Positions 1 through 26,812 are shown, counted from the stretch's first letter. The stretch is DNA of 64,000 nt from Microthyrium microscopicum (GCA_010405405.1 MU004238.1:383530-447529), one strand, 5' to 3'. The notes: generated by a model not told the origin, from the sequence alone. Program-made: numbers and translations.

Positions 1-1950
1 GTTTATAACCTTACGCTAATATATTTATAGCAAAAGCTTACTATATTTGTCTTTAATTCTTATATAGGCCTTATTTATAATAACTTTAACTATAAGAATT
101 AAATTTAGAATAAGAGGGTTAGCTATAGTTATATTATAAGAAATCTAACTATAGTTACTATAGTTAAATATTCTTATTATTCACTTAGTAAATTAACTTA
201 AGATATATATAATCTAATATATAAATTATCTCTATGCTTAATTATAAATTCTCCTCTTTATAAAGAATACCTAATTAATAAACCTATAGCTAATACTATT
301 AAGAAAGTCTTAATATATATAAGTCTTAAAGAAACCTTTAAGACTAAACTTAAGAGTAGATTTATTAATAATAAAGATAAGAAGAAAGAACTAGTATAGC
401 TATAGCTTAATTAACTTTCTTTAATTAAAACTAAATATTAATAATTTGCTAGTATATTTAAAAATAAAGGTACTATAGATAGTATATATAATATATATTA
501 TAAGATTTTTATAGACGTACTTAAATTTTTAAAATATAGCTTAAATAAAGTAAATATATTAAGTATAAACTTCTACTAATATTTATAGCTAACTAACTTA
601 TTAATAGGTAAACTTTATATCTTTACTTATTAATTATTTTTTATATATAAGAATTAACTTAATATAAAGAATAATTATACTATAAAATTTAAGTAATCTT
701 ATTTATCTTAGGCCTTTAATTAAAAGAAGTAGCTTTATTTAATTATTAGGTAGTTTTATACTTAAAAGTATTTTAGAGAGAGTATTATTAAGAACTATTA
801 AGGACTTATTAATTATTATAAGCGTACTTTATATTCTATTAAGTATAATATTACTACTTAAGGTCGCCTAAAGAATAAAATACGCTAGTCTATTTAGTTA
901 TATAAGCTAAAACCTATTCTATAATAAGTATTTAATACTTAAAACTTAGCCTTATTTAAGCTTACTTTACGTCGTTATAAATACTACCCTTTAAATATAA
1001 CTTTTAATATACTAGTAGATAATACGATTATAAGAGATATTATTAAGATATTAATAGTAAATTAGGTAGTTAAAATTATTTAAGATATTTAAACTCTTAT
1101 ATATTAAGTAGAAAGTTAAATTAGTTTATATAAGAATAAAGAAGGTAGTATAATAGTACTAGAGGACGTTAATATTTAGTTCTAAACGTTATATTAATAT
1201 ATATAAGAGATCTACCTATTATTAATATTAAAATACGCTATTAAATATATAGATATTAGTTTACTTTGCTAGCTAATTAATCTTATAATATATTAGTTCT
1301 ATAAGTCTAGTTCTAATAATTATAGTAATAAGATAATATAGCTTAAGTAAAATATACTAAATACTATTAATAAACTAGAGTTATAACGCGCTATACTAGC
1401 TTTTAGCTTAGTTAACTAGCTTAGTAAACTATATACTTATAAGGCTATAGATTTAGGCTTAGAATATATAAATAGTAGTATAAAACTAGATATAAAAGCC
1501 TAGAAGAATTTAACTTATAATATTTATACTACTTTTAATTATATATACCTTATAAATAGTTTTAGTAAAGAGTTAAAAGCTACGCTAGAGAATTTATTTA
1601 GTAAATATATATCTAGTATAAGGAGTATTACTATTATAAAGTATAACGTTAATATAATATATAATACTTTAATTTAAGGTAATTTTATAGAGCATTAGTT
1701 TCTAGAGGCTATTTAGATTAGAAAGAATAATTACAACTCTTAAGATATATAAATATTTAGAGCCTTAATACTTATTATTAGATAAAGGCGTTTAATAAAA
1801 AGTATATAATAATTTTAAATTAAGCGCGTATAATACTTAAGAGTAGTAGAGACGTTAAGCTAAAGTTTAATACTAGTATAGTAGTAAATTATACCTAAGC
1901 TTAAGATGCTAAAGAAGAAGATAAATTTAGTAACTTTAAAGATATTAATA
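1..1950 (+). pseudogene. RIP-inactivated DUF6589-family protein (putative Academ-type transposase), 5' part outside window
   Basis: Frame +1 reads YNNFNYK at 76 (ancestral YDNFDYK), FKNKGTIDS near 457 (FENEGTIDG), IKYIDISLL near 1240 (xKxxDIGLL), FYKSSSNNYSNK at 1297 (FHGSGSNNYGNE) and LVN*LSK..AIDLGLEYINSSIK at 1408-1485 (LVNWSGK..AIDLGLEHMNGSIK). Motif order matches DUF6589 as I recall it; the 3' end is approximate. Confidence 0.7.
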
Positions 1951-2292
1951 GATTTTAACCTAAGTTTTTAAGTTAGTTTAATTATATATATTATAATAAA
2001 AGAGCTTAATTTATTAAATTTACTTACTTATTAGTAAAGGATTATTTAAGAACTTATTAAGCTAACTAAGTATTAGTAGGTATAGTTAATAATCTAGTAT
2101 TTTTAGTTTATAACTTAGAGATTACCTTAACTTCTAAAGAGCTTTTATAACTTATATTACTCTACTTATAACTACTTTTACCCTTTCTACTCATAAATCT
2201 ATTCTAATCTAATTAGTTTTAAAGGTTTATTCATCCGTAAGTAATATAAATATAGTACTATAGTAGATGCTAATCTTGTTTCTCTTATTAAC

Positions 2293-2510
2293 TATAATGA
2301 TTCCTTATAGTACTATGTTGAGAGAGATCTTAGTATTATAAGATTACGCGCTAGACCTAGAGAGTATTAGCGCGTCTAAGGTTCTACTAAGTGGACTTAC
2401 TTCTCTTATAGATCTATAGTAGTTCTAAATTTTCTTCTTCTCTCTCTTGTATATAGATTCTTAAATACTAGCTAATTATCTACTTACTTTAAGTCCTATT
2501 GCTTATTATA
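2293..2510 (+). repeat. 5' LTR
   Basis: Ungapped match to 9958-10175; termini TAT...ATA are RIP-mutated TGT...ACA. Confidence 0.95.
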
Positions 2511-3099
2511 TAATCTACGTACTATAAAATTATTACGCGCTTATACTACGTATTAAAAAAGCTTTAAATCGTTTAGCGTAGGTAATATCTTATTACTCTT
2601 TACGTAGGTAATATCTTATTATACTTTATATATAGGACTCTAAAATTTTAAGCCCTACTTTAAAATCTAATAATACTAAAACTAATTAGCGCGTTGGAAT
2701 TCTTTAACGCTAATTATTTTAATTAGTGTTAGACTAATAAAAGGTCTAAGCTTTAATTGCCCCTTAATTACTTGCGTATAGGAATACTAAATTTATCTTC
2801 CTTACTATAATTCCTCTAAATACTATCTTTAAACTAAAATTATTCTTAACTCTAAATCTCTTTTGTAGCGTTTGTTAATTAAAAACTCTAATAGCTAGTA
2901 AGAATCTATTGCTATTATAAGCAATTAAGTTTTTTTACTACTATAGGGTAGACGTAGAGTAGATAGCTATTTATACTAATTTTTTTTACTCTAGCGTAAG
3001 GCTAATTAGCCTAATTATTATTAATTCTTATTTTCTTTATATTACTTATTAATTTTAAGTTGCCCTTTTACTATATTAGATATTAGCTAGTTAAATACT

Positions 3100-5181
3100 T
3101 AAGATACTATATAGATTTTATAATCTATAAAGAAGTTACTTATACGTAACTAAGAACTATAGAAATTATTAGTAAACTTTAATAAAAATAATAACGACTA
3201 GCTACTTAGGTTATTATAAAAAGAGAGTAAGAGGAAAGCCTTAATTTATAATAATAAAGGAGTAAGATCCTTAAAATAGTATATTAAAGATACTACTCGT
3301 AAAGGAGATAAGGAATTTAGAAGCAAAGAGGAAGGTAATATTACTAAAATCTATAGAATCTTTAAAGATAATACTAGCTTATTATAAGAAATTATTAAAT
3401 AGTTAGTAGTTATATAAAAGAATTTAGAATTAGTAGACGTTCCTTTAATATTTAAGAGCTATTATATAGTTATTATAGACTTAAACTATATTGTTAATCT
3501 CTTAATAGATTACGAGCTATTATAATTCTAAGCTATAGCGTATTAAGCGTTGCTTAGTTAAGAAGGCTAGAAGCTAGAGCCTACCCTACTAATAGTATAA
3601 AAGACCCTAGAGGACTTAGAACTACTATACTATAATTACTTTGTTATCTAATTTAGCTAAGGCCTTACCTATACTCTAAAAGGTAGCCTAGACTTTAATA
3701 AATTTATTATAATATTGTTTAACTACTACTTAAAGATATAGGCTATGTCCTACCTTTATAATATAGAATAAGACGTAAACGTCGTCTAAGCTAAGTAATT
3801 AAATAAAGAGAAAGCCTATAGCGCCTAGCTAGAGGAAGATGCTAAATAAAACTAGAATCTAGTAAATAATCTTATAAAAGTAAATAAAGACTATTAAGTA
3901 GAGATCTTATAGCTAAATACTAGACTTTAAGATAGTAACGTCTTCCTTAATAAGAGAGTTACTACTTATAAAACTATAAATAACCTCTAGTATAATAATG
4001 CCCTTTTAAAAGATATAGTTATATCCTAATTCTCTAAACTAGATTAGTTTTAAACTATACTTTAGTAGAAAGTTAATAAAGTTATAGTGCTTTAAGTATA
4101 AGTTAAAGCCTTTTAAAAGTCTAAGATACTTAAGAAGATAAATAACTCTTACGCTAATCTTAATAAGAACGCTAATAATAACTTGCTACGCTCTATATTA
4201 GTTAGTCCTAATTTAAACTTAAATTGCTAGTCTCTATATAGAAGTTCTATACTTTACTAATTTACTCCTAATTCCTTAATATACACTATAAGTAAAGGTT
4301 TTAGGAAACGAGGAGAAAAGCTTACTAAGTTTAATAGGAAAGATAAAGATAAGTACTATGCTTAGAAAGCTAAAGCGCTTAATTACCTTAATAAGAACGC
4401 TCTTATATATAATATAGAGTTATCTAAGATTCGTCTAATTTAGAGATAGATAGATAAATAGGCCTTCGCTACTATTAAAGAGTAAAGTAAATAAGATTCT
4501 TATAACCTATACCTTTATTTAAAAGAGGTATAGGCAAACCTAGACTATAAATATACTACTAAGGATAGTTTTGTAAAGGCTAAAGCTTAGCTTAAAATAC
4601 TAGAAGCTTAAATAAAGGTATTAGAAAAGGTAGAAGAATATCTTACTTGCTTCTCTTTTAATTCTTACGAAGCAAGATTATCTAATAAAAAGAAGATTAT
4701 TAAATTGCGTAACTTATTACTAAAGTATTTTACTAATTATTTACTATTTATTAAACTAGACTCTTACTCTAAATTTATTAATAACTTCTATAAGGTATCT
4801 TGCTAAATAAAATATTAACCTTCTATAGAAACTAATAATAATAGCTACTCTAACTCTAATAGCTCTTATAAAAGTTATAGAGGTAGAGGGCGTAGAAATT
4901 ATAATAGTAGTAGTAGTACTTATAATAATATTACTAATAATAATAGTAAAATTATACGTTTATAAGAAGTTTTTTACGCCTTACGAAAGGATAACTATTA
5001 TATCTAATATAGAGAATAAGGATATAGCTATTAGAAAGTAAACGCTTTATGTATAGGTAAAGATCCTCTTTTTAATACTAAGATTTATACTAAAGTTATT
5101 TATATAGCTATTACCTTCGCTATAGTATTTATATAACTTAACTCTAATTCTTTACGTATTAATAACGACTTAAAAAACTAA
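3100..5181 (+). pseudogene. gag: gag of the Gypsy element (start approximate)
   Basis: Frame +1 YYI*YRE*GY near 4996-5025 is a RIP-mutated Cx2Cx4H zinc knuckle; the frame ends A AAA AAC TAA at 5172-5181. Confidence 0.7.
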
Positions 5182-8100
5182 AAGCTCCTTTATATAGACG
5201 CGTAAAGAAGCTAAATAAGTAAGAAGCGTATAACTATTAAAAGAAAAAGAAATACTAAGTATATATATTTAATCTAGAGGACGAGCTAGAGATTATTCTC
5301 GCTACTAATAAAATATTAAGATATTAAGCCTATATATCTAACTCTAACTTAGACGATAAGGAAGGAGATAAAGACGTACTAAATTATAACTTTAACTTTA
5401 ACCTAGAGCTAAATCTAGAGCCTATAGAAAAAGCTTAGTCTAAATAATTAACTATAGAGGAATAGACGTTTAATAAAGAACCTATCTTTACTAAAGAATA
5501 AATCTAGAGTATAGTCTAAGATATAATTAAATACCTATAAAAGCTAGTAGAGCTAGAGCTTATAGTAATCTAAATCTCCTTAGTATTTATTATAAATAAT
5601 TTCTATCTAAGAGGTGTTTCTAAGATACCTATAGTTAGTAATTAGTAGACTACTAAAGGTATAGCTTATTTACTAAAAGTAGAATATTATGTCTAAACTA
5701 ACGTATTAATTAATATAGGAAGTAGAGTAATAAGTATTATATACCTAAATTTTATTTATTAATATAGTATTCCTATAATAAATCTATCTACTCCTTAAGT
5801 AATATAACTTACTAATAGTAAAGTAGTTGCTAAGGTAGATAAAGCTACTATAATAAATATACGCCTTAGTAAGCATATTAAGTAAATCTGTTACTTTATT
5901 ATAGATATTGCTAGTTATAATATTATTCTTAGAAATCTATAGATAAACCTCTATAAGGTTACTCTTAAAGAAGGTAAGAAGAAAATTTACTTTAACTCTA
6001 CCTATTACTTAGTAAATTGCCTACCTAATAGTTACTTAATATTAGTAGATTATAAAGGTCGTTCTTATAACCTTACTAACCCTTTACTAGATAGGAAAGA
6101 CGTTATTATAATTAGCGTAGTAGCTTTTATAAAAATACTAAAATAAGGATAGGAATTTAGTAAAGTATAGCTAAAAGATTTAGATAAAGATAAAGATAAA
6201 GCGCTACTAAATTCCTCTATATTAGAAACGCTAAAAAAGAATATCGCGATTAATCTCTTTAAGATATCTCTAGAAGACTATAAGAAGTAGCGTAAGAAGT
6301 ATAATTAGCCTTTATTAAGCTAGGAAGAAATCTTAAAGAAACTACTAAAGGAATTCTATTACTATATTAATATCTTTAACCTAAAGCTAAGTAATAATCT
6401 AGTACTATATTATAGTGAATAGAACTACTCTATTAATATTATTCCTAACGCTACTATTCTTAAGTAAAGATATAATACCTTTTTATATTAAGAATTACTA
6501 GTTATTAAGTAGTATATTAATTAAATACTTAGCTATAATTAAGTTTAAGCTAGTAAATCCTACTTTGTTGCCCTAATGTTATATATATATAAATCTAGAA
6601 ATAGTATCTACGTCTATATTAATTATTAAGGCCTAAATAAAATTACCTAGAAGAACTATAACGTCCCTTTATAACTATTAGAAACCTTAGCTAGAATATG
6701 CTATATAAAATTCTTCTTAAAATTTAACATTATTATAGCCTTTACTTATATTTAAATTAAACTAGAGGATAAATATAAAACTATATTCCTTACTTATTAT
6801 AGTCTTTATAAATTTAAGGTTATACTATTTAGTCTTACTAGAGCTCTAGGCATTTTTTAAGTATACTTAAATTACGTCCTTATAGAATACCTTAATAACT
6901 TTGTTATAAGCTATATAGATAACCTTCTAGTCTTTAGTAAGAGCTAAGATTAGTATACTATATATATCTACCTTATCCTAAAAGCTATAAGTAAAGTAGG
7001 TTTCTATCTTAATATTAATAAGTATAACTTCTTTACTAAATAAATTAAATACCTTAGCCTTATTATTACTACTACTAATATTAAGATAGATCTAGATAAA
7101 GTTAAAAGTATTACTAAATAGGCTTAACCTTTATTAATTAAAGACGTATAGGCGTTCCTAGGCTTTACTAATTTTTACTATCATTTTATTTATAGTTACT
7201 TCTAAACTGCTACCTTTCTAACCACCCTTACTAAAAAAGATATAATAATAATCTTTCTATAGGATCTAGATAGACCTAAGGACTACGTATTTAAAAAGCT
7301 AAAAAAGGACTTTACTACTATATCTATCCTTTACTACTTTAATTATATAAAAGAAATATAGTTAGAGATAGACGCCTCTAATTAGGTATATATTATAGTA
7401 CTCTCTTAGAAAGATAAAGAAGGCAAATTATAGCCTATCATATTCTTATTAAAGAAGATAACTCTTACTAAATATAACTATAATATTTATAATAAGAAGT
7501 TATTAGCAATTATCCACGCTTTTAAAGAATAGAAACTAGAGCTATTCTCTATAGTAGATATAGTTAAGGTATTCTTAGACTACTAGAACTTATAAACCTT
7601 TATGATGACTAAAAAGTTATTTTGCTAATAAATAAGATAGACTAAATTCCTATCCTAATTCTATTTCTAAGTTTAGTATCGCCTTAGTCTATTTAATAGT
7701 AAAGCTAACGTACTTACTTACTAATTATAAGATCTACCTTAGGACGATAATAACCTATAGGTCTCTTAGTAAGTCTAACTACTATTATTTCCTTACTAAT
7801 TTAATACTCCCTACGCTATTAAATTAGCTTTACTATTAGTTAAACTAGTAGCACTATTAATTATATACTTAGCTACTATTATTTAAGATAAGTTAGATAT
7901 CTCTACCTCTATAGAAAAGTTAATAGATCCTACAAAGGGGTTAGCTAGTAATAAAAGACCGCCTAAGAGGAAGTTAATAGAACCCCTAGGAGATAATAAA
8001 TTCCTAGATTTTAATAGTAATTAGTTTATATAAGACATAGTTTAAGAGTCTACTAGTAACAAAACTATAAAAGCTATCTAATAGGCTAAAGTAAACTACT

Positions 8101-9560
8101 AAACGTATCTATCCTTTAATATGCCTAAGTAGGAAAGTATTAAGCTAGGTAACTATATAGTTACTATAAATAATATAATTCTATACTATAACTATATCTT
8201 TGTCTTCTATAGTAAACTACGTTACTAAGCCCTATTCTTTACTTATAGCTACAAAGTTATAAGCTATAAAGGAGTAGCTATAACCTATTATTACTTATAA
8301 GAGACTTATTAGTAGCCTAAAATATTATAAGATGTAAAGATATATATAAAAGGTTATAAATACGTCTTTACTAAACTAGTACGATAAAAGAAGCAAAGAT
8401 TCTTAAGAAGCTTCCTCTTACTAGAACGTGCTTAGTTAGATATCTTTATTAACTTTATCGTTTTATTACTATACTGTTGCTACTAAGGAGTAATCTACTA
8501 CTATATTATAGTTATTATAGATTATTATATAAGAATGTATTGCTTTATCTTGCTACTAGACCTCTCTATAGAATTTATAGTTTTAGCATTTATTAACTAT
8601 ATTTAGAGATTAGTAGGTTAGCCTAGAAGCATCCTTTTAGATCGTAGTAGCTAATTTACCTTAGCCTTTTAGAAATATTTATATAAATGTATTAGTACTA
8701 TTCTTTACCTTAGTATAGCTTTTTACCTAGAGATAGATAGTATTATAGAAATCTTTATTGTAGCCCTAAAGTAGTATTTATGAGCCTTTATTAATTAGAA
8801 TTAAGATAATTAAGTTGCTTTACTACTATTTATAGAATTTGTAGTTAACTTAGTAGTAAACGTAACTATAAGAATTACGTCCTTCTAGGTATAAAATAGC
8901 TTTAATCCTTAATTAGGCCTTAAAGCTAATTACCTTATTCCTTACTCGTCTTATACCTCTATCGCTACTAATAAAGAAGAAGCTAATGTAGATATTATAT
9001 AATAAGGTTGCGCTAATATATATAAATACCTTATAGAGTAACTTACTTAGGCTTAAGTATAATAAGCTAAGTATACTAACTATTATTACTAAGCCGTACT
9101 AAATCTATAGCTAAGTAATTAGGTAAGATTAGATACTCGTAATTACTCTACCTTTTATCCTTTAAAAACGCTTAATAGTAAAAGCTCTAAACCTTTCTAT
9201 ATTATTAAAAAGATTAATGCTATTATATATAAGCTAGATCTACCCTCCTTAATAAAAATACATAATGTCTTTTATGCTTAAATCCTTTACTATATTACTA
9301 ATAATGCTAAACTTTTAAAATATTTAAATCTCCCTTTTATAATTATAGGTAAGACTAAAGAAACTATAGAATAGTAGGTAGATATAATTATTAATAGCTA
9401 TTATAAGCCCTAGACTAAGAAGAAAACGTTATAGTATATAATTAAATTTATAGGCTATAATATAGTAGAATGGCACGATTAGCATAATGCTAAGAACGCT
9501 CTAGATCTAATTGCAGAATTCTATGCCTATTATTTTAATAAGCTAAGCTTTTACCCCTCC
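5172..9560 (+). pseudogene. pol: pol (protease, RT, RNase H, integrase, chromodomain)
   Basis: All in frame +3: VLINIGS at 5703 (LIDTGS), YIDNLLVFS at 6912 (YxDD), LEIDASN* at 7362 (LETDASDW), YNKKLLAII (YDKELLAII), ILLDRSS*FTLAF* at 8631 (SDRGSQFTSAFW), IHNVFYA, and E**VDIIINS at 9369 (chromodomain). End approximate. Confidence 0.92.
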
Positions 9561-9840
9561 TAGATCCTATTATAGTTAGAGCTAACTAAAGATAATAACG
9601 TCGCGTATAACTCTAATAGAGTCCTTACTAACTAGCGCTAAAAAGTTTACTTTCTTTATATTACTAATATCTCTATTTAGCATGGATATGCTAGCCTTTA
9701 GACTACTAAGACTTAAGAACTAGAGTATTCTAGAGATATCTTAAGGTTCGTTAATGCCTCTTAATAGTTGCTTTAGTAAGCTAAAGGTTAAGATGCTCTA
9801 AACGTCTAATCATTAGCGTTATATTATAGAAGGAATTTAT

Positions 9841-9904
9841 TAGATTAGACTAAATTAGACTAGACTAGATTAGACTAGACTAGAACGGACTAGAATAGAC
9901 TAGA
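9841..9904 (+). repeat. (TAGAY)n pentamer microsatellite in the retroelement 3' non-coding region
   Basis: tagat tagac taaat tagac tagac ... about 13 units. Confidence 0.85.
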
Positions 9905-9943
9905 AGAGTAATAATAAGCTAAGATAGCCTAGAGAGCTATTCT

Positions 9944-9954
9944 AAAGGAGAGGG
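9944..9954 (+). other. Polypurine tract
   Basis: aaaggagaggg ends 3 nt upstream of the 3' LTR start (TGT at 9958). Confidence 0.85.
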
Positions 9955-9957
9955 TTA

Positions 9958-10175
9958 TGTAATAATTCCTTATAGTACTATATTGAGAGAGATCTTAGTA
10001 TTATAAGATTACGCGCTAGACCTAGAGAGTGTTAGCGCGTCTAAGGTTCTACTAAGCGGACTTACTTCTCTTATAGATCTATAGTAGTTCTAGATCTTCT
10101 TCCTCTCTCTCTTGTACGTAGATTCTTAAATACTAGCTAATTATCTGCTCACTCTAAGTCCTACCGCTCGTCACA
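9958..10175 (+). repeat. 3' LTR
   Basis: Begins TGTAAT, ends TCACA, followed by the TSD TTAAC. Confidence 0.96.
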
Positions 10176-10180
10176 TTAAC

Positions 10181-10328
10181 CTATAAGCTAATCTAAGCCT
10201 AGTCTTACTAAGCCTAAATATAATATTTAAGTCTCTCTTACTAACCTTTAAGCTAATTTAAGCCTAGTCTTACTAAGCCTAAATATAATATCTAGGTCTC
10301 TCTTACTAACCTTTAAGCTAATCTAAGC
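10181..10328. repeat. 65-bp tandem repeat interrupted by the retrotransposon
   Basis: Units start at 10181, 10246 and 10311; the left flank of the element (tctcttattaac, 2281-2292) matches the unit end (tctcttactaac). Confidence 0.85.
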
Positions 10329-12331
10329 AACTCTTTATATATTTCTATTATATTAGGTATTATCCTTTATAAGAAGTATTACGATACTAATAATATAGTA
10401 AATAAGATTTATTACCTTTCTCTTAATTTACTTACCTTTAGTATAATTAGCTATAAGTATTATAATACTAACTACGTTATAATACTAATATCTATCTAAT
10501 TATTCTAAACCTACTTATATTTAGTATTATTAGTAGTAAGTATTATAATGCTAACTAAGTTATAAACTATAACTATTCTATTACTCTAGACTTACTTATC
10601 ATTAGTATTATGTCTTATAACTAAGACGCGCTAAAGTCTTTACTCTATACTATACTAAAGGAAGGTAGTTAAAGTTTAAGTACTTATTAAATATCTAACT
10701 ACTCTACTACTAATTCTTTTACTATACGTAATATTAAGTAAGACTACTATGCTATAATTCTTTACTTAGCGCTATATCTTTTTAGCCTTAACTAATTTAC
10801 TAGTTGCTTTAGCTATAAATTTCTAAAGTTCTAAAATTTTATTTATATATTAGTTACCTAAGCGCTAGTCTTTAATATTAATAGTTCTATAAACCTTAAA
10901 TAGTATACTTATATACTAAATTTCTTTTATATATATATTACTAATAATAAGTACTAGACTCTCTATAATAGCTACTCTTATCTTAATAATAATAAGATTC
11001 TATAAATAATTAACTAGAAGTTAACCTACGTAAGTAGTATTAAAGGCTTATATATCTTTATTACTTAAGTTGTTTATAATTATTTATATTAGCTATTTCT
11101 ATTAGTTAGAATATATAAGAAAATATATAAAAAGACTTACTTCTATAAGTAGTTTATTAAACGCTACTTCTATATTAAAAGCTCTTATCTAATTTAGAAG
11201 GAAAGGGTTTAAGTATTAAATAGTAATAATAGTACTAATAGCTTATATACCTACTAACTCTATATTATACTAGATAAAAATAGTTAGAGTTTAAGTACTC
11301 TTATTTAATCTAGGAGGAGAGGGTTTAAGTACTAAATAGTAATAATAATACTAATAATTTACTAAAGTCTAAATAAGACGCTTTTATAATAATTGTCGTA
11401 GATATAATTTTAATTATTAATAATAATAATAATTAGTTAGCTAAAGTCCTTATTCTATACTATACTAGAGAAAGATAGTTAAAGTTTAAGTACTTAAGCC
11501 TTATCTAAGAGATAAGATTTTAATATCTAATCTATTCTATAATACACTAATTTATTAGTTTGCTTTACTATAGTATATATAGGCTAATTATAGATAAGGT
11601 AAAGAGAAGCAACCTTATAAGACTAGAATACTCTTTATATACGTCTTAAAGTAACTTAATAATAAGTACGAAATTAAGTATAGTAAGGTTTACCTAAGAA
11701 TAAGTAGTATTATAAGTTATGCTAGCGTACTAGTATTAATAAACGCATAAATTTCTATAAGCCTTCTAAGTAGTAGAATTATCTAGATACTAAGTTAGCT
11801 ATCTTACTTAAAAGAGTTAATTTGCTAAGGATACCTTCTAATTATAGTAAAGCTTTAATTAAAAATAAGTAATACTATAAGTTACGCTAGTATATAGAAA
11901 TTAATAAGTATATAAGTTAACTATCTTACTTAAAAGGATAAGTTTATAAAGAATACCTTCTTAATACTATACGTTATAATAGTTATTAATAACTATTAAG
12001 GGTTTTATAAGCTTTTTAGACGCTAAGAATATCTAGACGCTAAATTGGCTATCTTACTTAGAAAGATAAGCTTATTATACTATCTTATAAGTCTTTCTAT
12101 TACTAGTAGTTACTCTTAGCTTTTTAAGATAAATAATAACCTTTATTATAAGTAACGTAGGTAATATTTACTATTATTTTAATTAAATGCCTTAGTAGTA
12201 GCTCCTTCTATTTATAACTTATATATTAGGATATATATAAATATATAAGTATTAATAAGTTCTAATAGGTATTAATAGATTCTAGTAGGTATGCCTACGT
12301 AAGTAGCATTATTAATAGTAAGAACAACCCT

Positions 12332-15309: not shown

Positions 15310-15462
15310 NNNNNNNNNNNNNNNNNNNNNNNNNNNNNNNNNNNNNNNNNNNNNNNNNNNNNNNNNNNNNNNNNNNNNNNNNNNNNNNNNNNNNNNNNNN
15401 NNNNNNNNNNNNNNNNNNNNNNNNNNNNNNNNNNNNNNNNNNNNNNNNNNNNNNNNNNNNNN
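15310..15462. other. Assembly gap (153 N)
   Basis: Run of N; tacttaat flanks both sides. Confidence 0.99.
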
Positions 15463-15963: not shown

Positions 15964-16138
15964 TCTACTATTAGTCGTAATAAGCTTATTAAGCTTTAGG
16001 ATAGTAAAAGAATACTAATTAAAATACTTATTAACTATAATAACTAGATTTACGTACTAGTATTTTATTCTAGTAGTAAATATCTCCTTTTATACTCTAA
16101 AGATAAGACTATTTATTGCTAGGATATTTTATAAGAAG
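15964..16138 (+). pseudogene. nudF: RIP-degraded fragment of a LIS1/NudF/Pac1 WD40 gene
   Basis: Reads STISRNKLIKL*DSKRILIKILINYNN*IYVLVFYSSSKYLLLYSKDKTIYC*DIL*EG. Undoing transitions gives [54 protein letters not shown], which matches the last WD repeats of fungal NudF as I recall them. Followed by a gtacgt donor site. Confidence 0.8.
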
Positions 16139-18499
16139 GTACGTTATTCCTATAGCCTATTAAAAATAGTCTATATAGATAAATATAATACTAATAGATA
16201 AGACTTAAGAGTAATAGGCGTAAGCTAAAATAATTTTAGCCTTATTCTAAGTAGATATCTACTTACTAACTTAATATTAATTAATATATTTTACTAATTA
16301 TATAATTACTTCATTCTAACCTTAGAACCTTATTAGAAAAGGCGTAACTCTAATTAATAAATATAAGAATTTTACTTTTATAATTCTAATTAAGTAGAAG
16401 GCCTTAAACTTATAAGCCTCTAATATAAGTAGCTACTTAGGTTTTATATAGCTTAAAAGTTATTTAATAAAGCTATCTAAAGATACTATAACGTTTAAAT
16501 ACTAAATATAGTAATAATATTTAATTAATGTACGTTAATATCTATAGAAACTTTATAGTACTATATATTTATAAACTCTACTATATTTAGAATCTAATAA
16601 TTATATTATAAAGTATTTATAGTCTAATAAATATTTATTAGCTACGCGTAGTAAATATTTACTATTATTCTAAAGATTATTTAGTTATAAACTTTAAAGT
16701 TAACGTTACTAATAGTAACCTAATAATCTAAGTTAATATTAGTATTTTTTACTAAAGACCTTTCTACTTCTTAAGAACTATATAATTTAACTCTTTCGCT
16801 CCTTAAAAACTATATAGTCTAGCCTTTTCGCTCCTTAAGAACTATAATAATCTAGTTTAATTATAGAGTTTATATACTATAGTTTAGCGGTAAGAGTATA
16901 TACCTTAATTAAGCCTTTATAAAGTACTTAAAGGATTATAATATTTATATTTTAATACTTATTATAAGTACTTATAAAATATAAACTTATCTTATTCTAC
17001 CTATTTCTTAGCCTTATATTATTCTAGGCTATCTTATTTATTAGTAATAATATATATTCTTTTAGCCTAGATATTTATACTTACTATTATTACTAAATAG
17101 TAGAACTAATTATTACTAGCTAGGCGTAGCTAAAATATTATTATATAGATATAATATAGTAGATTACTCTTTAGCGTTAAATTATATACTATATATACTT
17201 ACGCTAATTTAATTATTACTTACTATTACGTTAAGAGTAATAATACTTACTATAATCTTATACTTTTACTATTAAGTTACCTTCTTAGTTTCTCTATTAA
17301 TTAAACTAATAACTATTCTCTAATAATTTAGCGTTCCTATTCTTTTATTTAATAGTATAGTCTAAATATATATAGCAGAGGCTAATATATGCGTATATTA
17401 GTAAGTATAATAGTAAAAGTAGTTTCTATTTAATATAGCTTGTTAAAAGTTAATACTAAAGCTAAAAAAGGATATAAGCTATTTGTTGCTATTCTCTAAA
17501 TACCTTTAAAGAATAAAGTAAATAGCGTTCTAATATTAGTAAAGCTATAGTTAATAAGAATATAGATTTTAGTAGTAAGATAAATAGATAAACTAAAGAT
17601 AACGTAATATAGTAGCTTAGTATACTAAAATAACTATTAAATTAGAAAAATAAGATAGAAGATAATATAGTAGATTAAGTTAATAGATTAGATTATTAGC
17701 TTATAAGTTTGTATTATTTTAATTATAAGAGTATAGTAATAATAGCTAGTCCTAAAATTGATATCCTTTAGGATTCTTAATATTATCTAACTATTCCTAG
17801 ATATTCTATATTCTACTAAATATATTCTTTTAATACCTAACTAGTTACAAAGTCTAATAAAATACTAAACTACTTATTTTAGGCTAGTATATTCTATAGT
17901 TCTATAAGGCATATATTAGCTATATAAATATTATATATTTTTTAACTTTACTTATTTATAACTAACTATTTACTAATATTAATGTTTATATTATAGCGTA
18001 TATAATAAATAATAAGATAATAAGAATGATATTATTAATATACCTAATATAATTAATTTAAATAACTATAATATATTATTATATACTTATAATACTTATA
18101 ACGTACGCCTTATAGAATACCTATAGCTTTTAAAGTAACTCTTACTTGCTTCTTATAGAATCTAATTAAATAATATAATTATAAAGATATTAGAGAATAC
18201 TAGATATACTTATAATCTTTATAATATATACCTTATAAGATACTTATAGCTTTTAAAGTAACTCCTACTTACTTCTTATAAGACCTAATTAAATAATATA
18301 ATTATAAAAGAAGTGCAAGATACTAAACGCTTAAGTAGTTACTATTATTATAAGAAGTATATATTAATACGCTATTCTATACTAACTATCTATTCTAAAT
18401 TACTACTTCCTAAATCTTTATTTTTTAACTAGTCTATAAACTAGATAATTTACTTAAAGTCTTATACTTTATAACTTTACTTTTAAATTTATAATAATT

Positions 18500-18952
18500 A
18501 TCTCTAAAGGTATAATCCTTAAGAAATATAATATAATAGGTATAATAACTTTTAAAATTCTTCTACGTATCCTTTACTTTCTATATAAATTACTAATATT
18601 TCTATCTACGCTTAATATATACTAAATATATAGTAGTATTTAGTACGTATTTACTAAAAGTTATCTTTATTATATAGCTAATATTATTATATAGTTTTTT
18701 TTTTAAGACGTTAAAATGTTTTACTTCTTAGTAGTCTAAGACTACTATTTATTAAGCGTAGTAGAACGCTTTATATCTAGACTTAGCTTTATTACTATAA
18801 AACGTAGCTAGCTAAGGTTAATTCTAACTATTAAGCTAGAGTTAAATTTTTATATAAGTACGTTATACTTAGTCTTAGTAAGGATAAGAGCGAAAAAAGA
18901 AAAAGGGTTAGGATTAATAAGAGTCTTATTATTTTCTTCGTCTTTATTATTA

Positions 18953-18983
<31 letters not shown>

Positions 18984-20400
18984 CGTCTATTAGCTTATTA
19001 TTACTAAAATTAAAGAGCAAATTTAAAGAAAGAGATAGTTTAGGTAAGCTAAATATAAGAGAATTTAGAATAAAAAGGAGACTCTCTTCTTACTTAATAA
19101 GCATAGCTAAATAAGCTTAGTAAGTAGCCTAGTAAGTATTAAACTTAACTTACTAACTATAATTATTACTACTAATATCTATAAGTAATATACTAGAACT
19201 TATAAATTATTAAAGTTATAACGCTTTATAATATAATTAGAAATTCTACCTTCTAAATAAGTATATTTACCTTTTTAGTATAGTACGCTATAAGGAATTA
19301 ACTTTACTATCTTAATAAGCTAGAATAGCAAAAGACTATTAAATAGTTAATAAGTAAAGATAATATACGTATTAAGTATAAGATAGTATTAAGAGTATAT
19401 TTTTCTTTTAAGAGTAATAAAAGACGTAAGTATATAAAATTATAAAGTTAAGAAGTTAAAGTTTAAAAGCTAAGGAATATAAAGGCTTTAAAAAAACTAT
19501 AATATAGTAGTCTTACTATTTTAAATACTTAGTCTAACTAAGAGTATTAGCTATTAAATAGTTATAATTACTTAATTTAGTAATACCTAGTTAGCTTATT
19601 ATATCCTTATAAAGCTCTTATTTAATAAAAGAGATAGGATAAAATTAGTTAATATATAAGGAATATTAATAGCCTAAAAGTCGTATTAAAAGGATATAAT
19701 AAAGACTTAAGACTATACTCTCTTAAAAGTAGTCTAATTAAGTATAAAAAGAATTACTTAAAAGAAAACCTAAAGATATATAAAGATAAAAAAGAGAAGA
19801 AGATATATTTAGTATAGTAAGGAATATACTATTTAGATAGTAAATATAATAAGTAGTACTTTATAAAGTTTTTACTACTATCTAATTAAGATAATAAGAT
19901 TATAATATTAGTAGCCTTAATTAATTATAAAGGGTTATAAATAGTTAAATATATAGTAGAAGTTACTATATAGTTTATACTTATTATATATATACTATTT
20001 AGTTATAAAATATAACTAAAATAGTAATAAGCGAAGGATATATTATATTTAGTAGAAAGATCTATTAAGTATATTCTACTAGCATATTAATTACTTAAAA
20101 GGGAATACCTAGGCTTACTATATTATTTTTACTTAATCTAGCCTTTATTTAAACTAGTAAAATAGACATATTATATAGTATTTTATTTATTAATACGTTA
20201 TAAAACGCTAATATAGATTTATATAGTATTATTTCTTAAACTAAATACTATACTAAAATTATAATCTCTATAACTTTAAATAACTACTAGCTTAAAGACT
20301 AACTCTCTACGCTAATAATATATATTATTCCTATATAACTTAATAGTTTTAATCTAAATAGATATACTGCCTTTAAAGAGAGTTTAGTAAAACTCCTCTC
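18500..20400 (-). pseudogene. RIP-degraded gene, possibly tyrosine-recombinase-like
   Basis: Minus strand shows an acidic poly-D tract (~18935-18990), then NLS*LRFIVI (~18790-18820) and NISYIIKITFSKYV (18644-18685), which could derive from LR...GH...Y. Tentative; boundaries approximate. Confidence 0.3.
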
Positions 20401-21269
20401 TATCTTTATAACAAAAATTTAGTAAAGTAGTAATAATATTAAGAAAATATATATAGAAAAGATTCTTAATAAAGAACTATTATAATATAATAAGTTACTA
20501 ATAGTAAAGGGTAATAGGCTACTTAACTATCTATATTATATTCCTTCTAATATTTCCTAGTAAGTATTAAGATAACTAAGTTTATTACCTACTTTAAGCT
20601 AACGCTAGAGTATAAACTAGCTTTATAAAACTATAATTACTCTATTCTACTAAATTAATAGTATAAAGTTTTATAAAAGTTTATTAATATTATAATAATT
20701 TATAAGAAAGTCTTTATTAAAGAGTAAAGCGTATTACTAGAGAATAAAATAGATAATAAAGATACCTACTACTAGTACTTTCTAATATATAATAGTATTA
20801 ATATGCTTAATAATATTAACGCACCTAATAGTTAATCTACTAAAGTTTAATATAGATTTAATACTACTAATAATATTAACTCTATACTCTAAACTATATT
20901 ATTCTTTAAGTAGTACCTTAACTATAACTATATCTCTTAATATAGCTTAATTACTATTTTTATAACTAAGAATAATTAATAATCTCTTAAAGGCTAATAT
21001 ACGAACTATGTTTTTTAAGTAGTTAAATAGCAAAATACTAAATATTCCTTAATACTAATTTCTAGTAAACCTACTTAACTTTACGTTTTTACTTATAATA
21101 TTAAAAAGTAAAGTACTTAAGCTACTAATAATTAGCTATATTAGCTTTGCGTATAAGGGATTAAAGTATAAGCCTTAGCTAAATAGAGTCTACTTATTAT
21201 TAGATTTTCTAATATCTAGTTCCTATTATAGTATCTAGTTTCTATTACTTAATAAAACTAGTAAATAGG

Positions 21270-21482
21270 TAATACTAAGTAACGTAAAGAAGCTAAGTAC
21301 TATAGTAATACTAAGTAACGTAGAGAGGCTAAGCGCTATAATAATACTAAGTAATATAGAGAGATAAAGCGCTATAGTAATACTAAGTAACATAAAAAAG
21401 CTTAGCATTATAGCAATACTAAGTAACATAAAGAAGCTTAGCGCTATTATAATACTAAGTAACGTAAAGAAGTTAAGCGCTA
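21270..21482. repeat. 36-bp tandem array, 6 copies
   Basis: taatactaagtaacgtaragargctaagcgctatar at 21270, 21306, 21342, 21378, 21414 and 21450. Confidence 0.92.
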
Positions 21483-24400
21483 AAATAGCTTTTTTACCTA
21501 GAAATATATATACTATATTTAAATAAATCTAAGTTAGGATACTATCTAGGTTTTACTAATACTTATAGTAATATCCTATTATATCTTAGGAATACTTTAA
21601 TATACTTACTAATCTTATATAAACTAGTAAATTTGTCTTTATTATTATACTTATAAAGAGCCTCCTCTATAACGTATATTATAATATATAGGCTTTATAA
21701 TAGGGCTTAATACTTAGATATCTATTTACTAAAGATACTATAATAATAATAAATAGGCAAAGTAGTTATAATAGACTAATAAATATAATATGCTATAAAT
21801 ATATATAAAATAATATAATGCTTATAATAAATAAGAATCCTAAATACTAATATCTATAGACTTTTAGACTAAAAATATAAAATATAATACTTACGTAACT
21901 ATACTTATTTACTCTTTAGAATCTTATATAATTCTATATAGTTCCTTATAATACCTAAACGAATAAAATAATTAGAAAACTAAATATTTAGAATTATATA
22001 CTAAGTCTAGCCTATTTTAATATTAGACGCAATATTTTTTTACTTATCTTTAATTCTCTTCTTATTAATTAAAGAGAATACTTTTTTATACTCTTTCTTA
22101 TAGTCCTCCTAATAGTAGTAGTTAAACTATTCCTTTCTAGAGTTATAGGTAAAGACTATCTTATACTAGCCTTAATTTAGTAATAACGTAGTATTAACTA
22201 GCTTAATAGGTTTTAGCTTAGTAAATAACTCTTTTATTAAATATAAGTTAAGTAATAAGTATAAGAAGTAGCAACTAAAGTAATACTATCTTTATCTAAT
22301 ATAGGTATTAACTAATTAAATAAATTACTATCTATATCTCTTTTATTATCTTTAAAATTAGTATTTATAAATCCCTTATATTTATCTAGAATATTACTAT
22401 TATCTAAATCTATAATATTCTACTAATACTTAATAAACGATAAGGTTAAAATATTTATTAACGTAAAACCTCTAAATAAACTAATAAGAGTAGATATATA
22501 TTTAATTAGCTAACTTATAAATAAATAAATTCTTTTATTTTCCTCTTATACTCTACAAGCCCTTTCTTATATTAACTTATTATTTATTAATTTCTTAAGA
22601 ACCTAGCGCTAAAGATTACTAGTTTAAGATAATATAGGTAGCTATAACTAAGACTCTAACTATAATGCTATAATTTATATTTTCTTTAAGAGCTTTACTT
22701 CTTTAGCTATAAAGCATACTAAATAATTAACCTTATAAGCATTCTTATATAACTACTTAATAATAGTTTCTAATTTTTAAAGAATAAATAATAGCTTTTC
22801 TTTTAACATAATAGTATTAGTCTAATTAACTAAATTAAGAATACGTATATATAATTTATTCTAAGTAGAATATTAAGTATTAGAAAGAAATTTAGTAGCA
22901 TAGAAATAGGCTAGCTACCTAATTAAATTATTATCTAGTAACTAGTCCTTACCTTAAGGATATTTACTCTTATAATTATTCTCTATATATATAGCCTCTT
23001 CTATTATTAAGGACTAGACTTATAACTACGTTCTTATAATAACCTTACGACTATTCTTATTTAAAGCCTACTTATATAATAGAAATACTAACTAAACTAA
23101 TTTATAAAACTTATTTAGATAATATTTATTATAATACCTTAAAATTAGTATAGAATTATAATCTATTATCTAAGGTAAGAATTTACCTAGCTTATAGAGA
23201 ATAGCTTCTTAAAAATAGTCTAAATAATTTATAATAATAAACTATTTATATAGGACTCTACTATAGGTTTTAACCTTAGCTCTAAACTAGAATAAAGGAA
23301 TTAAACTAGGTATGCTATCTAGTAGTATATTAACTTCTTACGTATCTATAACTAATACTTAAGAAGTAATAGATATAATAGTAGATACCTATAAGGTAGT
23401 ACTAGCTTTACTTTTAATATTATTATTATTATTAAATAGCAATTTAAGCTATAAGGTACTTAGACTAGCCCTATTCTAAATATAAAGTTATTAACGTTAA
23501 AGTAGTATATAATTTTAAGTTTTATATAAAGAGGACATAATCTAAATAAATTAAATAGTTAGTAAACTTACCTAAATGCCTTTCTATAGATTAAGTTATT
23601 TTTGTCTAAATATATTAAATATTTAATATAAAAAAAATACTATAGTAGTATTAAATAACTTATGTCTACGCCTACTATAACCTATATACTACTATAAATC
23701 TATAAGACTATATAGTATTAAGAACCTCTAAATAATAATTAATATAATATTTAATATATTAATACTAAGTCCTAAGCTTATAATTATAATTATAATTTAA
23801 TAAAGTAAACCTAAAAGCTTAAACTCTTAATACTAAACTATCTTATTATAGCTAAAAATAGTAGAGATAATTTCTTAAATAAGGTTATAAATATAACGTA
23901 CGTTATCCTTATTAAAATAAGTATACTACTAATCCTTTAAAAAGTTTTTAGTTAAACTAACTAGAGTAGCCTAAAGGTATTTTAACGCTATATAAATTTT
24001 TAACCTACTATTAATATATATAATAGTTTTTTTAATTAACTTAGAGGTAGCCTTCCTAGCCTTAGAGTTAATTATAGTATCTAAGATCTAATAAAGTCTA
24101 TTAAAAGATACTAACCTTTACTTAAATATAGGCTTAAACTAGATTATAATATCCTAATAGTTAATAGAGGAGTATATAATAGTAATTTATTATTTATATA
24201 GTTCCTCTTCTTAGAATTCGCTATAATAAAGAATAAACTATTATATAGATAAACTTAAGATACTAGTATAACTAAACTATATAACGTCCTAATATAGTAT
24301 TATATAAAGCTTATAAATTATAGTAAACTAAGACCTAAAATCCTACTACTATTTAACTAGATAGTATTTATTAATAGTAATTATTCTAATTCTATTTTAG

Positions 24401-25245
24401 AAAATAGAATTGCCTAATATACTATAGAAAAGCCTACTAGATATAGTTTCTAATAAAATTAATATATAGGTATATTAACTAAATATAATATTAATAGTAA
24501 TATTCTTTAACTAAGTTATCGTCTTGCTATAAATAATAATAGGCTTAGACTTAGAGATAGCTAAGATACTATTAAATTATTTATTCCTTAATTAGTTTAT
24601 AGGAATTAGCTATAAGGTAATCTTTTCTATTAATATAGAAAAGTTATATAGTATTAAACTCTTACCTTATTTAGTATAAGTAATAAGTAAGATATTATAG
24701 CCTTTATATATTAGGAACCTTAAGGCCCTAATCTATCTAGGATAAGAGTTATAGCTAGTTAACTTCTATAAATATAACTATAATATATACTCTTATATTT
24801 TAGCTAATAGCTAGATTTAAATAAATTATATAAGGGCGTAAATAGTATTAACTAATTCTAGTTATAAAGTAATATATATAGCTTTAAGTAACCTTTTAGA
24901 TTTCTAAAGGAGATAAGGTTTAGGTAATTATAAAAGTAAGTAATTAGGCTAGTCTTATTATAATAATTATAAGTACTAAGATTATAGTAGTCTTAGTCTT
25001 AGTTTTAGTTTTATAAATTGCTAATAATTACCTTACTTATTCTTTATCTAGCCTATAATACTATAACGATAAGGTTAGTATTAATAATAAGATATATATT
25101 TATAACGATTAATATTTAATAATAATAATTACTAACTTATATATTATGCCTACTAATTAAAAAGAGCTACTATAAGCTACTAAGAGCAAATAAGGATTAT
25201 ACTAAGATACGTAAAGATGCTTATATAAGCTAGATATTTAAAGAA

Positions 25246-25306
25246 ACTAAAGATACTAAAGATACTAAAGATACTAAAGATACTAAAGATACTAAAGATA
25301 CTAAAG
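25246..25306. repeat. 9-bp tandem repeat (actaaagat)n
   Basis: About 7 near-perfect copies. Confidence 0.9.
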
Positions 25307-25726
25307 CTATAAAGAATACTAACGCTAAGTCTAAAAGATAAAGTAAGAATAATAAAGGCTATGTCTTTAAACTCGTAAGATTTCTTAGCTATAATAAAAC
25401 TACTATAGTAACCTCTTTAACTAAATAAAGTAATATTAAAACTAATAAAGATATTACTAATACTCTTATATAGTTACTTAGTATTAAAATACTAAAGCTA
25501 TCTAAATACTAGCATAATAAGAATACTAGAATACTAGAATGAATCCTTTGCTTAAGCTACTACTTTACTAAAGTTATTAAATTAATTTAAAAAGTAGGTA
25601 AGGGACTATAAGAGTTACGTAGAGATACTAATATAAGCTATATATACTATTAAAGGTATAAAAATAACTACTAAGAATACTAATAAAGTTATAAAAGTAA
25701 TAAAGAGTAAATATAAGCTATTTAGG

Positions 25727-25806
25727 AACTTATAGAGACTTATAGAGACTTATAGAGACTTATAAAGACTCGTAGGGACTTATAGGGACTTATAGAGACT
25801 TATAGA
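25727..25806. repeat. 10-bp tandem repeat (gacttataga)n near the right end of the AT block
   Basis: About 8 copies; the variant gactcgtagg preserves a less mutated unit. Confidence 0.9.
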
Positions 25807-26812
25807 AATACTTATATAAGCAGAATAGATTATAGTAAGTAGTCTTAGCAAAAAGAAGGCTTAGTCTAACTAAATATATAATTAACTAAAAGATAAATAA
25901 GAATCTATAACTATACTATTTTATAGTAAAAATAAACGTATAAGGTAATAGAGTAGCTAATTATAAATTACTATATAGTAATTTAAAGTAACTAAATTAT
26001 ATTATTATTATATAGTTAATAGCTAATAGAGAAGGATAAATATTAAGCAAGTTAGTATTTTTTTAAGTTATATAGGAATTATATTGCTAAAATAATTAGA
26101 AAAGGTAATAACTTAAAAATATATTTATTTAAAAGCGTAGTTAATGCTATATAACTTAAATTTAATAGATTTTTAAATTTACGTACCTATTTAGCTAGAG
26201 ACGTTATTATAGATAAATTAAGTAAAAATATTAAGTAGCTTATTAATAAATAGGAACAAGAGTCTCTTAGACTACGTAGCAAAAAGCTAAAGGAAGTAGA
26301 ACGAGCTCTAATTGGCTAGAATCTAACCCTACACGTTAGTAGACGCCACATTTTTGCTGCTAGTCTGACTAAGTGAGATAAATCAATCGCACTTTGCTTT
26401 GACGTCAAATGTGGTTGAACAGTTTCACGGTGAATGGTATTCTGAGTAGTCGATGAGAGCATTGGCCATTTGTTGTTGACGGTTGGTGATGGAGTTGACG
26501 TATCACTGGTCGTTAATATTCATTCCAATTGCTTCTTGATACTGTGCATTTGGCATGCTGCTGTGATCGATCTTCAATGTACCAGTTGCGTACATGCGAT
26601 GACTCTCTTATTGTTTACCGTGCCAGCACATGAAGTTGGATGCTTCCCTCAAAGTGGAAAGAACCTGGCATCTCGCATGGAACTAACTACCTAGTATCGT
26701 AGTTGGGGAAAGAGCGTACAGTGTCAACCCTCAATTACAAAAGCAGAAAGAGCAGTGGAAGGAAGGCATATCTCTTAGACTCTTCGTCAAGGACAATTAC
26801 CGCTAAACATCA

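Follow-up and report, generated by a model that had tools for sequence, protein, structure and literature searches.

A 64,000-nt stretch of the Microthyrium microscopicum genome (GCA_010405405.1 MU004238.1:383530-447529; here called the window, with coordinates counted within it) opens with an AT-rich block that has been altered by repeat-induced point mutation (RIP) and that is probably one dead copy of a helicase-encoding, Academ-type cut-and-paste DNA transposon. Two gene relics were identified in the block, one of a DUF6589 gene on the plus strand and one of a RecQ-like helicase gene on the minus strand, and the right end carries a terminal sequence shared with related elements. The order and orientation of the two relics are those found in the relatives, which are 63 loci on metagenome contigs retrieved by a scan with nine close DUF6589 proteins, and we infer that both halves of the block, left and right, come from a single copy. 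A complete Ty3/Gypsy retrotransposon is nested between the two relics. The features of the transposon copy in the window are as follows:

1 to 26250, no strand: AT-rich, RIP-mutated block (GC content and composite RIP index per kb)
70 to 1671, plus strand: relic of a DUF6589 (putative Academ-type) transposase gene (Pfam, phmmer, and tblastn; single frame)
20500 to 23616, minus strand: coding-like codon periodicity (chi-square mostly 12 to 28; frame -1 stop-poor)
23617 to 24741, minus strand: relic of a RecQ-like superfamily 2 (SF2) helicase core (profile hmmsearch and tblastn; single frame)
25728 to 25806, plus strand: subterminal 10-bp tandem repeat, 7.9 copies (Tandem Repeats Finder [TRF])
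26363 to 26381, plus strand: right terminal inverted repeat (TIR), GTCTGA..GAGATAA, read in the sequence as GTCTGACTAAGTGAGATAA
26382 to 26389, no strand: first 8 flanking bases, the would-be right copy of an 8-bp target duplication (as judged from 8 of 8 copies of a related family)

The GC content was 0.17 to 0.28 per kb across positions 1 to 26,000 and 0.42 to 0.53 across 27,001 to 64,000, with an abrupt rise at 26,200 to 26,300 that forms the right boundary of the AT-rich block. Per kb of 1 to 26,000, the TpA/ApT ratio was 1.54 to 2.16, the (CA+TG)/(AC+GT) ratio was 0.03 to 0.28, and the composite RIP index was 1.40 to 2.07; the last was negative in every kb past 27,000. The TpA excess, the depletion of CpA and TpG, and the nearly transition-only divergence between the long terminal repeats (LTRs) of the nested retrotransposon (see below) together make up the signature of RIP. 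The terminal ~120 bp of the element (26260 to 26381, terminus included) looked almost free of RIP, with a GC content of ~0.42 next to 0.17 just inside, and this tip may have been absent from the duplicate copy that set off RIP.

In the left part of the block, Pfam family PF20231 (DUF6589) was detected at nucleotides 1198 to 1527 (34.5 bits against a cutoff of 27; E value, 1.3e-8). Searches by tblastn with the proteins of two related loci, L004 and L005, gave E values of 1.4e-20 for 1207 to 1671 and 1.4e-5 for 70 to 522. The relic retrieved 125 proteins by phmmer at E values of ≤1e-3 (best, 1.9e-29), and DUF6589 was the sole Pfam domain in all 17 of the long proteins scanned and later in all 50 that were aligned. 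The relic contains 41 stops in 534 codons (25 TAA, 16 TAG, and no TGA), and 14 of the 34 stops that could be aligned with L004 stand opposite Q or W, against a background of 5.5%.

The helicase relic was missed by Pfam. However, hmmsearch with a profile of the relatives' helicases matched profile positions 103 to 475 of 936 to nucleotides 24741 to 23617 (174.8 bits; E value, 9.3e-55), and tblastn placed residues 105 to 441 of the L004 helicase at 24732 to 23722 (E value, 6.3e-30). This relic has 34 stops in 375 codons (20 TAG, 14 TAA, and no TGA); 10 of the 30 aligned with L004 are opposite Q or W (background, 5.5 to 7.8% for both relics), and in both relics this is far in excess of chance. 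TAA and TAG account for all 75 in-frame stops of the two relics, as would be expected if CAA, CAG, and TGG codons had been converted by RIP. Since the frames are intact and the stops lie opposite Q and W, both genes were killed by RIP and not by insertions or deletions.

The right terminus was recognized by the pattern GTCTGAN{4,7}GAGATAA, which was composed after the site at 26363 to 26381 had been seen and which matches once in the 64 kb, against 0.01 matches expected; it sits at element ends in 22 of the 63 related loci. Thirteen fixed bases that fall on the expected strand, where the end of the element should be, are not plausibly explained by chance. This terminus lies ~1.3 kb past the presumed helicase start (~25,050), the corresponding distance in L005 being 1.14 kb. 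The tandem array at 25728 to 25806 has a unit identical, in purine/pyrimidine code, to a 10-bp unit of the relatives and occupies the equivalent position, ~0.6 to 1 kb from the right end. Inside the window, neither an inverted partner of the right terminus nor a reverse-oriented 10-bp array was found, and a search for the 18-mer TIR of the relatives in purine/pyrimidine code returned matches at chance level.

Low-GC, multicopy RecQ helicase genes are described at fungal chromosome ends in the available sections of PMC4522978, and the helicase relic might belong to this telomere-linked helicase family, as a host or subtelomeric gene with no relation to the DUF6589 relic. We regard this as extremely improbable and rejected it on three grounds: (i) the score of 174.8 bits was obtained with a profile built solely from helicases inside DUF6589 elements; (ii) the DNA of the relic, written in purine/pyrimidine code, matches that of the element loci with no change of orientation; and (iii) a distance of 1.3 kb, within which the subterminal 10-bp array lies, separates the relic from the element terminus.

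The relatives themselves are true transposons, as seen from a shared unit, a TIR, and 8-bp duplications. A unit of 8.6 kb is common to at least eight loci of one metagenome, with 80 to 92% identity. Its edges, TTATCTCATAAATCAGAC... and ...GTCTGATTTATGAGATAA, form a perfect 18-bp TIR, and 8-bp target duplications flank all eight copies (five perfect and three differing by transitions only). TTAA, which is the target of Kolobok elements, lies inside just one of these eight duplications. The 18-mer TIR, with up to three mismatches, was found in 23 of the 63 loci, contigs of other metagenomes included, and in L005 both TIRs are present, 9.56 kb apart, with open reading frames (ORFs) between them.

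According to the open-frame profiles, the relatives are laid out as TIR, N-terminal ORF (N-ORF; plus strand), DUF6589 (plus), ORF3 (minus), a helicase of ~935 amino acids (aa) (minus), and TIR. A minus-strand helicase was found downstream of DUF6589 in 28 of the 63 loci; among the 23 loci whose contig continues for at least 4 kb past DUF6589, 19 have it. Wherever a helicase was present (28/28), it was on the strand opposite to the transposase. Of the 35 loci with 1.3 kb or more of upstream sequence, 31 have the N-ORF. Pfam domains DEAD and Helicase_C were identified in the helicases of L004, L005, L008, and L022, and all 37 matches of the relatives' helicase to PDB sequences at E values of ≤1e-5 were to the RecQ family (WRN, RecQ, RECQ1, RECQ4, RECQ5, and BLM). 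No Pfam family matched the ORF3 or the N-ORF of the relatives. In L012, L016, and L022, the helicase follows DUF6589 after 0.3 to 0.45 kb, without ORF3, so this ORF is not universal in the family.

Some further properties of the relatives were also noted. The 18-bp terminus is nearly invariant (e.g., L005, 981 to 998; L019, 8678 to 8695; L062, 21057 to 21074), although the DUF6589 proteins are only 28 to 58% identical to the query, which points to a strong constraint on the terminus, presumably binding of the transposase. The 10-bp unit CAGGAGTTYG and its complement form short tandem arrays near both ends and internally, in opposite orientations, and these arrays are candidate protein-binding sites. 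Examples are as follows:

L005, 2270 to 2312 and 9540 to 9605: 10-bp arrays
L018, 11840 to 11895, 13675 to 13725, and 16570 to 16640: 10-bp arrays

In L033, a right terminus (8575 to 8592) is followed, 148 bp on, by a left terminus (8740 to 8757), so that two elements lie nearly back to back. Nested insertions were seen in L055, L044, and L062; the DUF6589 gene is split by ~6.5 kb in L055 and by ~2.1 kb in L044. The multicopy relatives (L018 to L028, L040, and L062) are RIP-like, with TpA/ApT ratios of 1.5 to 1.8 and no ORF of at least 180 aa within the elements, and the family seems to be a regular target of RIP in other ascomycetes too.

In the window, a clear codon-phase signal extends across 20.5 to 24.7 kb, and by its position the stretch from 20500 to 23616 would hold the C-terminal half of the helicase and possibly ORF3. 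The profile of the N-ORF had no match in the window.

An initial annotation, made from the sequence by itself, had described a RIP-mutated block with a DUF6589-type gene relic and a sharp right edge at 26375, and had read it as a possible DNA transposon with a DUF6589 transposase. The base composition, the PF20231 match together with the tblastn span of 70 to 1671, and the GC step agree with that description, and the end of the terminus at 26381 is six bases from the edge it gave. The transposon reading is now backed by both relics, the right terminus, and the TIR and target duplications of the relatives. The annotation had also suggested looking for a RecQ-like helicase, and the relic at 23617 to 24741 on the minus strand is such a helicase. 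Of the several former reading frames that it had seen outside the DUF6589 gene, at least one is confirmed by the helicase relic, and the codon-phase signal at 20.5 to 24.7 kb adds to it.

The annotation of DUF6589 reads "unknown function"; a role as a virulence factor has been suggested, as speculation, in one preprint. We modeled one member with AlphaFold (AF2) on the alignment of 50 proteins (predicted local distance difference test [pLDDT], 87; predicted template modeling score [pTM], 0.89), and the fold is predicted to be DDE/RNase H-like. With an exhaustive aligner, the top structural match to the model was the P element transposase (Z score, 7.3; 249 residues aligned; root mean square deviation, 5.4), followed by Hermes (Z score, 6.3) and ISCth4 (Z score, 5.7) and, lower in the list, by retroviral integrases, Transib, RAG1, Tn5, and Argonaute PIWI domains; the best 22 rows were all RNase H-fold enzymes. 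The conserved sites of DUF6589, namely, YDNxN near the N terminus, GDQ, and DLxxEHxN, fit a DDE site. In the alignment, D141 was conserved in 46, F175 in 45, H176 in 48, D403 in 50, and E407 in 49 of the 50 proteins.

The RNase H-like domain of Academ transposases matched no Pfam family in 2017, according to the available sections of a study that supplied a hidden Markov model (HMM) of its own (Muszewska et al. 2017, PMC5751038). We compared this profile (RNase_H_Academ, in supplementary file 1 of PMC5751038) with DUF6589 by matching consensus letters by eye, without scoring. The corresponding motifs and spacings are as follows:

Second D motif: Academ HMM states 187 to 194, v-l-t-g-d-q-p-l; DUF6589, LVhGDQkT (D141)
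FH motif: Academ HMM states 220 to 223, g-f-F-H; DUF6589, FH (F175, H176)
E motif: Academ HMM states 444 to 462, w-a-y-v-h-l-D-e-a-l-E-q-l-i-v-r-d-l-K (D-e-a-l-E....K at 450 to 462); DUF6589, IDLxLEHxN (D403, E407)
Spacing from D to H: Academ HMM, 32; DUF6589, 35
Spacing from H to E: Academ HMM, 231; DUF6589, 231

The position of GDQ in the Academ HMM was forecast at about state 188 from the DUF6589 spacing and was found at states 190 to 192. The matching order and spacing of GDQ, FH, and DxxxE support placing DUF6589 in the Academ superfamily by its putative transposase core. A link between DUF6589 and Academ had been proposed in the initial annotation, and the predicted fold, the three motifs, and the RecQ-like helicase partner all speak for it; a literature search of limited coverage returned no paper linking DUF6589 (PF20231, IPR046496) to an Academ transposase. 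Certain results tell against the assignment. Z scores below 8 are individually weak by the aligner's own standard, the weight resting on the uniformity of the list. A Foldseek search of the model against PDB gave nothing at E values of ≤1e-3, and the comparison with the Academ HMM covered 119 of its 465 states (16 to 40, 169 to 194, 220 to 245, and 424 to 465). An HMM of the 50 DUF6589 proteins found nothing below an E value of 0.15 among PDB sequences.

The source of the AcademH lineage is reportedly the work of Kojima in Mobile DNA (2020, 11:15). In the available sections of PMC10045372 and PMC10799480, AcademH is the helicase-encoding lineage of the Academ superfamily, and the first of these gives target duplications of 9 or 10 bp for AcademH and 3 to 4 bp for AcademX. 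As far as those sections describe them, AcademH elements resemble the relatives studied here in being TIR-bounded cut-and-paste transposons with a DDE transposase and a separate DEAD/Helicase_C gene and in occurring in fungi, Ascomycota included. An element-borne helicase, by which AcademH is distinguished, occurs in the relatives, and the window retains the relic of one. However, the duplication in the relatives is 8 bp long (8/8 copies) and not 9 or 10 bp as stated in PMC10045372, and we therefore file the element under helicase-bearing members of the Academ superfamily and not firmly in the AcademH clade.

Other transposons share single features with these elements. KolobokH, as presented in the available parts of PMC9587614, is also a fungal DDE transposon encoding a RecQ-type helicase, but its helicase lies downstream on the same strand, whereas the elements studied here encode theirs as a separate gene on the other strand. 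The KolobokH motifs FDCSWSH, DGDLDSNK, and NEAFN (PMC9587614, supplementary file 3, as far as available) are unlike the YDNxN, GDQ, and DLxxEHxN of DUF6589, and membership in KolobokH was rejected on the basis of these different catalytic motifs and the opposite-strand helicase (28/28 loci). The DUF6589 model resembles the transposases of P and hAT elements in that its predicted RNase H-like core is interrupted by a large helical insertion domain. P and hAT elements also make 8-bp target duplications. Unlike their transposases, the DUF6589 proteins match no Pfam transposase family (50/50 match DUF6589 only), and we know of no helicase partner in P or hAT elements.

Just 3' of the DUF6589 relic, the block is interrupted by a retrotransposon with the following features:

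2288 to 2292, no strand: left copy of the TTAAC target duplication (read directly; identical to the right copy)
2293 to 10175, plus strand: Ty3/Gypsy LTR retrotransposon, nested, RIP-mutated, complete, 7.9 kb (Pfam, LTRs, polypurine tract, and target duplication)
2293 to 2509 (217 bp) and 9958 to 10175 (218 bp): LTRs (self-comparison)
9944 to 9954: polypurine tract, AAAGGAGAGGG, adjoining the 3' LTR
10176 to 10180, no strand: right copy of the TTAAC target duplication (read directly)

The Pfam domains RVT_1, RT_RNaseH_2 (E value, 3e-15), RT_RNaseH, and SH3_Tf2-1 were found in frame +3, and the order of reverse transcriptase, RNase H, and integrase, the LTRs, the polypurine tract, and the short duplication identify the element as Ty3/Gypsy. 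The two LTRs are 99% alike in purine/pyrimidine code; their alignment contains 198 matches, 18 transitions (11 of them in CpA/TpG context), one transversion, and one gap. The TTAAC duplication is intact, so the DNA from 1 to 2292 was once joined directly to that from 10176 on, and the Gypsy element inserted later. The view of the initial annotation that the RIP-mutated DNA is not of retroelement origin is valid for its last ~16 kb, where no retroelement domain was found (10.2 to 26.4 kb), but not for the full interval from 1 to 26,375, which includes this element.

After removal of the Gypsy element, the gap between the DUF6589 and helicase relics is still ~14 kb. The extra DNA amounts to ~10 kb (10,176 to ~20,300), of which ~4 kb consists of minisatellite arrays and ~6 kb matches nothing:

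10177 to 14112, no strand: minisatellite-rich stretch with units of 65, 83, 58, 139, and 66 bp (TRF and self-comparison)
14113 to 20300, no strand: RIP-mutated DNA without assignment, including a run of N (no match to Pfam or relatives)

The run of 153 N at 15310 to 15462, which interrupts the AT-rich block, is either an assembly gap or a masked stretch. A Pfam search of the six read-through frames of 1 to 26,500 (stops as X) detected only the DUF6589 and Gypsy domains and nothing in 10.2 to 26.4 kb. The stretch from 14113 to 20300 had no match to the relatives' genes and only low-complexity matches to the DNA of the 63 loci; tblastx of Gypsy against 10.2 to 26.4 kb likewise gave low-complexity matches only. 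The codon-phase signal was low at 11.1 to 13.3 kb and at 15.6 to 18.6 kb.

Two repeats in the block were considered separately. A 106-bp direct repeat (13456 to 13561 and 20578 to 20683; 7.1 kb apart) is 97% alike in purine/pyrimidine code; it was rejected as an LTR pair because the similarity does not extend further. An inverted repeat (2023 to 2239 and 19425 to 19633) had a score of 68, which is not significant against shuffled sequences (mean, 58.7; maximum, 78).

Spacers of variable length were also seen in the relatives. The complete ones are 8.6 kb and 9.56 kb long, and in most loci the distance from the end of DUF6589 to the far end of the helicase gene is 0.3 to 3.2 kb; in L004 and L062 it is 6.2 to 6.4 kb. 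L004, in which all four genes are open, is at least 13.4 kb long and has an extra ORF (4603 to 5385) and minisatellites between the convergent gene sets, and the RIP-mutated L062 measures at least 19 kb from the N-ORF to the right TIR, with large insertions. Intact relatives have minisatellites at the place equivalent to 10177 to 14112, on a smaller scale. The extra ~10 kb is probably DNA that accumulated later, or a variable spacer belonging to the element itself, rather than cargo; nothing positively points to cargo genes.

Several observations weigh against the interpretation of the block as a single transposon copy. The left terminus is outside the window, which leaves the right terminus of this copy without a visible partner TIR or matching target duplication. 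Profiles of ORF3 and of the helicase C terminus had no match in the window. The distance comparable to that measured in the relatives is ~12.6 kb in the window without Gypsy, which makes this copy an outlier, and the block yielded no TIR, LTR, or target duplication marking the end of any further nested element. The N run lies between the two halves of the element, whose contiguity depends on the assembly. The evidence on this copy comes from one 64-kb window.

Some of these observations would also suit a mosaic of two broken Academ-type copies, a 3'-truncated one on the left with the transposase and a 5'-truncated one on the right with the helicase and the terminus, separated by unrelated RIP-degraded repeats of an AT isochore. 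The ~10 kb lacking homology to the relatives, the undetected ORF3, and the N run between the halves all favor such an arrangement, and truncated or interrupted copies are common among the relatives (L026, L033, L035, L055, L057, and L058). Against it, the gene order and orientation are exactly canonical, the terminus motif matches once in the window with no extra match between the halves, a nested insertion is directly demonstrated at the site, and expanded spacers occur at the equivalent place in the intact L004 as well as in the RIP-mutated L062. We consider a mosaic unlikely, though the most credible of the alternatives to a single dead Academ-type copy.

The initial annotation had proposed one giant unit carrying cargo, analogous to Starships, and this would correspond to an element with ~20 kb of its own DNA, in which a long internal cargo was moved as a unit by the DUF6589 transposase. 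The extra DNA indeed lies where the gene sets converge, as do the extra ORF and minisatellites of L004 with its four open genes, and the uniform RIP of the entire stretch suggests prior duplication. However, RIP can spread into, or be shared with, nested repeats; no recognizable gene was found in 10.2 to 20.3 kb, and the codon-phase signal is low over the two intervals given above; and both complete forms of the relatives, the 8.6-kb family and L005, are 8.6 to 9.6 kb long. We give this alternative little credence. The size that had been called giant includes 7.9 kb of later Gypsy insertion, and neither Pfam nor the relatives' genes identified a cargo gene in the extra ~10 kb. Of the coding-type tandem arrays that had been noted there, the arrays exist (22 TRF rows in the block), but a coding nature does not follow from their periods of 66 and 36 bp, although these are multiples of three. 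The host gene fragment that had been reported was not found.

Starships use a DUF3435 tyrosine recombinase, the "captain," at one end. The element in the window is like them in being a large mobile element of a filamentous ascomycete with RIP-affected DNA and unlike them in that its relatives measure ~9 kb, carry TIRs, and make an 8-bp duplication. Neither a tyrosine recombinase nor any other Starship domain was detected in the window, and the analogy is left without a Starship-type feature there; for DUF3435, the six frames of 1 to 26,500 gave no Pfam match at E values of ≤0.01, in a search whose sensitivity is lowered by the heavy RIP and with the left end of the block beyond the window. It also seems doubtful to us that helicase-bearing Academ elements have a "cargo bay" between their convergent genes, in which case the copy in the window would be a ~20-kb unit with ~10 kb of passenger DNA.

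If the block is a single Academ-type copy, its history would be as follows. A living element of this kind would have TIRs of ~18 bp, a DDE transposase (N-terminal ORF plus DUF6589 core) on one strand, and the small ORF3 and the RecQ-like helicase of ~935 aa on the other strand, and it would generate an 8-bp duplication at insertion. The copy in the window would run from beyond the left edge to the right terminus at 26381, with the N-ORF and the left terminus, in the form TTATCTCA..TCAGAC, expected ~1.4 kb to the left of base 1. After its insertion, the Ty3/Gypsy element would have landed just 3' of the transposase gene, and the ~10 kb of minisatellite-rich and unassigned DNA would have come between the two convergent gene sets. 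RIP would then have changed C to T and G to A throughout, keeping the gene frames and filling them with TAA and TAG.

The flank past the block contains ordinary fungal genes, encoding a UvrD-type helicase, HsbA, a PP1-type phosphatase, an aldehyde dehydrogenase, and NOP9. The first of these, a UvrD/REP-type (Srs2-like) gene for 992 aa (30921 to 33899, minus strand), lies in DNA of normal GC content, 4.5 kb from the element; it belongs to the ordinary gene complement of the host and has no relation to the RecQ-like relic. Four sequencing runs of one sample contain 26 to 70% of the words sampled from 15463 to 25462; this is probably the source sample and not an independent one.

These results assign a predicted role, as the catalytic core of an Academ-type transposase, to DUF6589, a Pfam family so far of unknown function; the assignment draws on sequence motifs and a modeled fold. 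The element family is described concretely from 63 loci, with a four-gene layout, a TIR that is nearly constant even where protein identity has fallen to 40 to 55%, 10-bp subterminal repeats, and an 8-bp target duplication. The window illustrates the fate of such an element in an AT-rich isochore, namely, frame-preserving nonsense mutation by RIP, a nested Gypsy insertion, and an inflated spacer, and inflated size alone should not be read as evidence of cargo. If the "cargo bay" were real after all, filamentous fungi would have, beside Starships, a second class of large cargo carriers that works by a different mechanism, namely, a DDE-plus-RecQ transposon.

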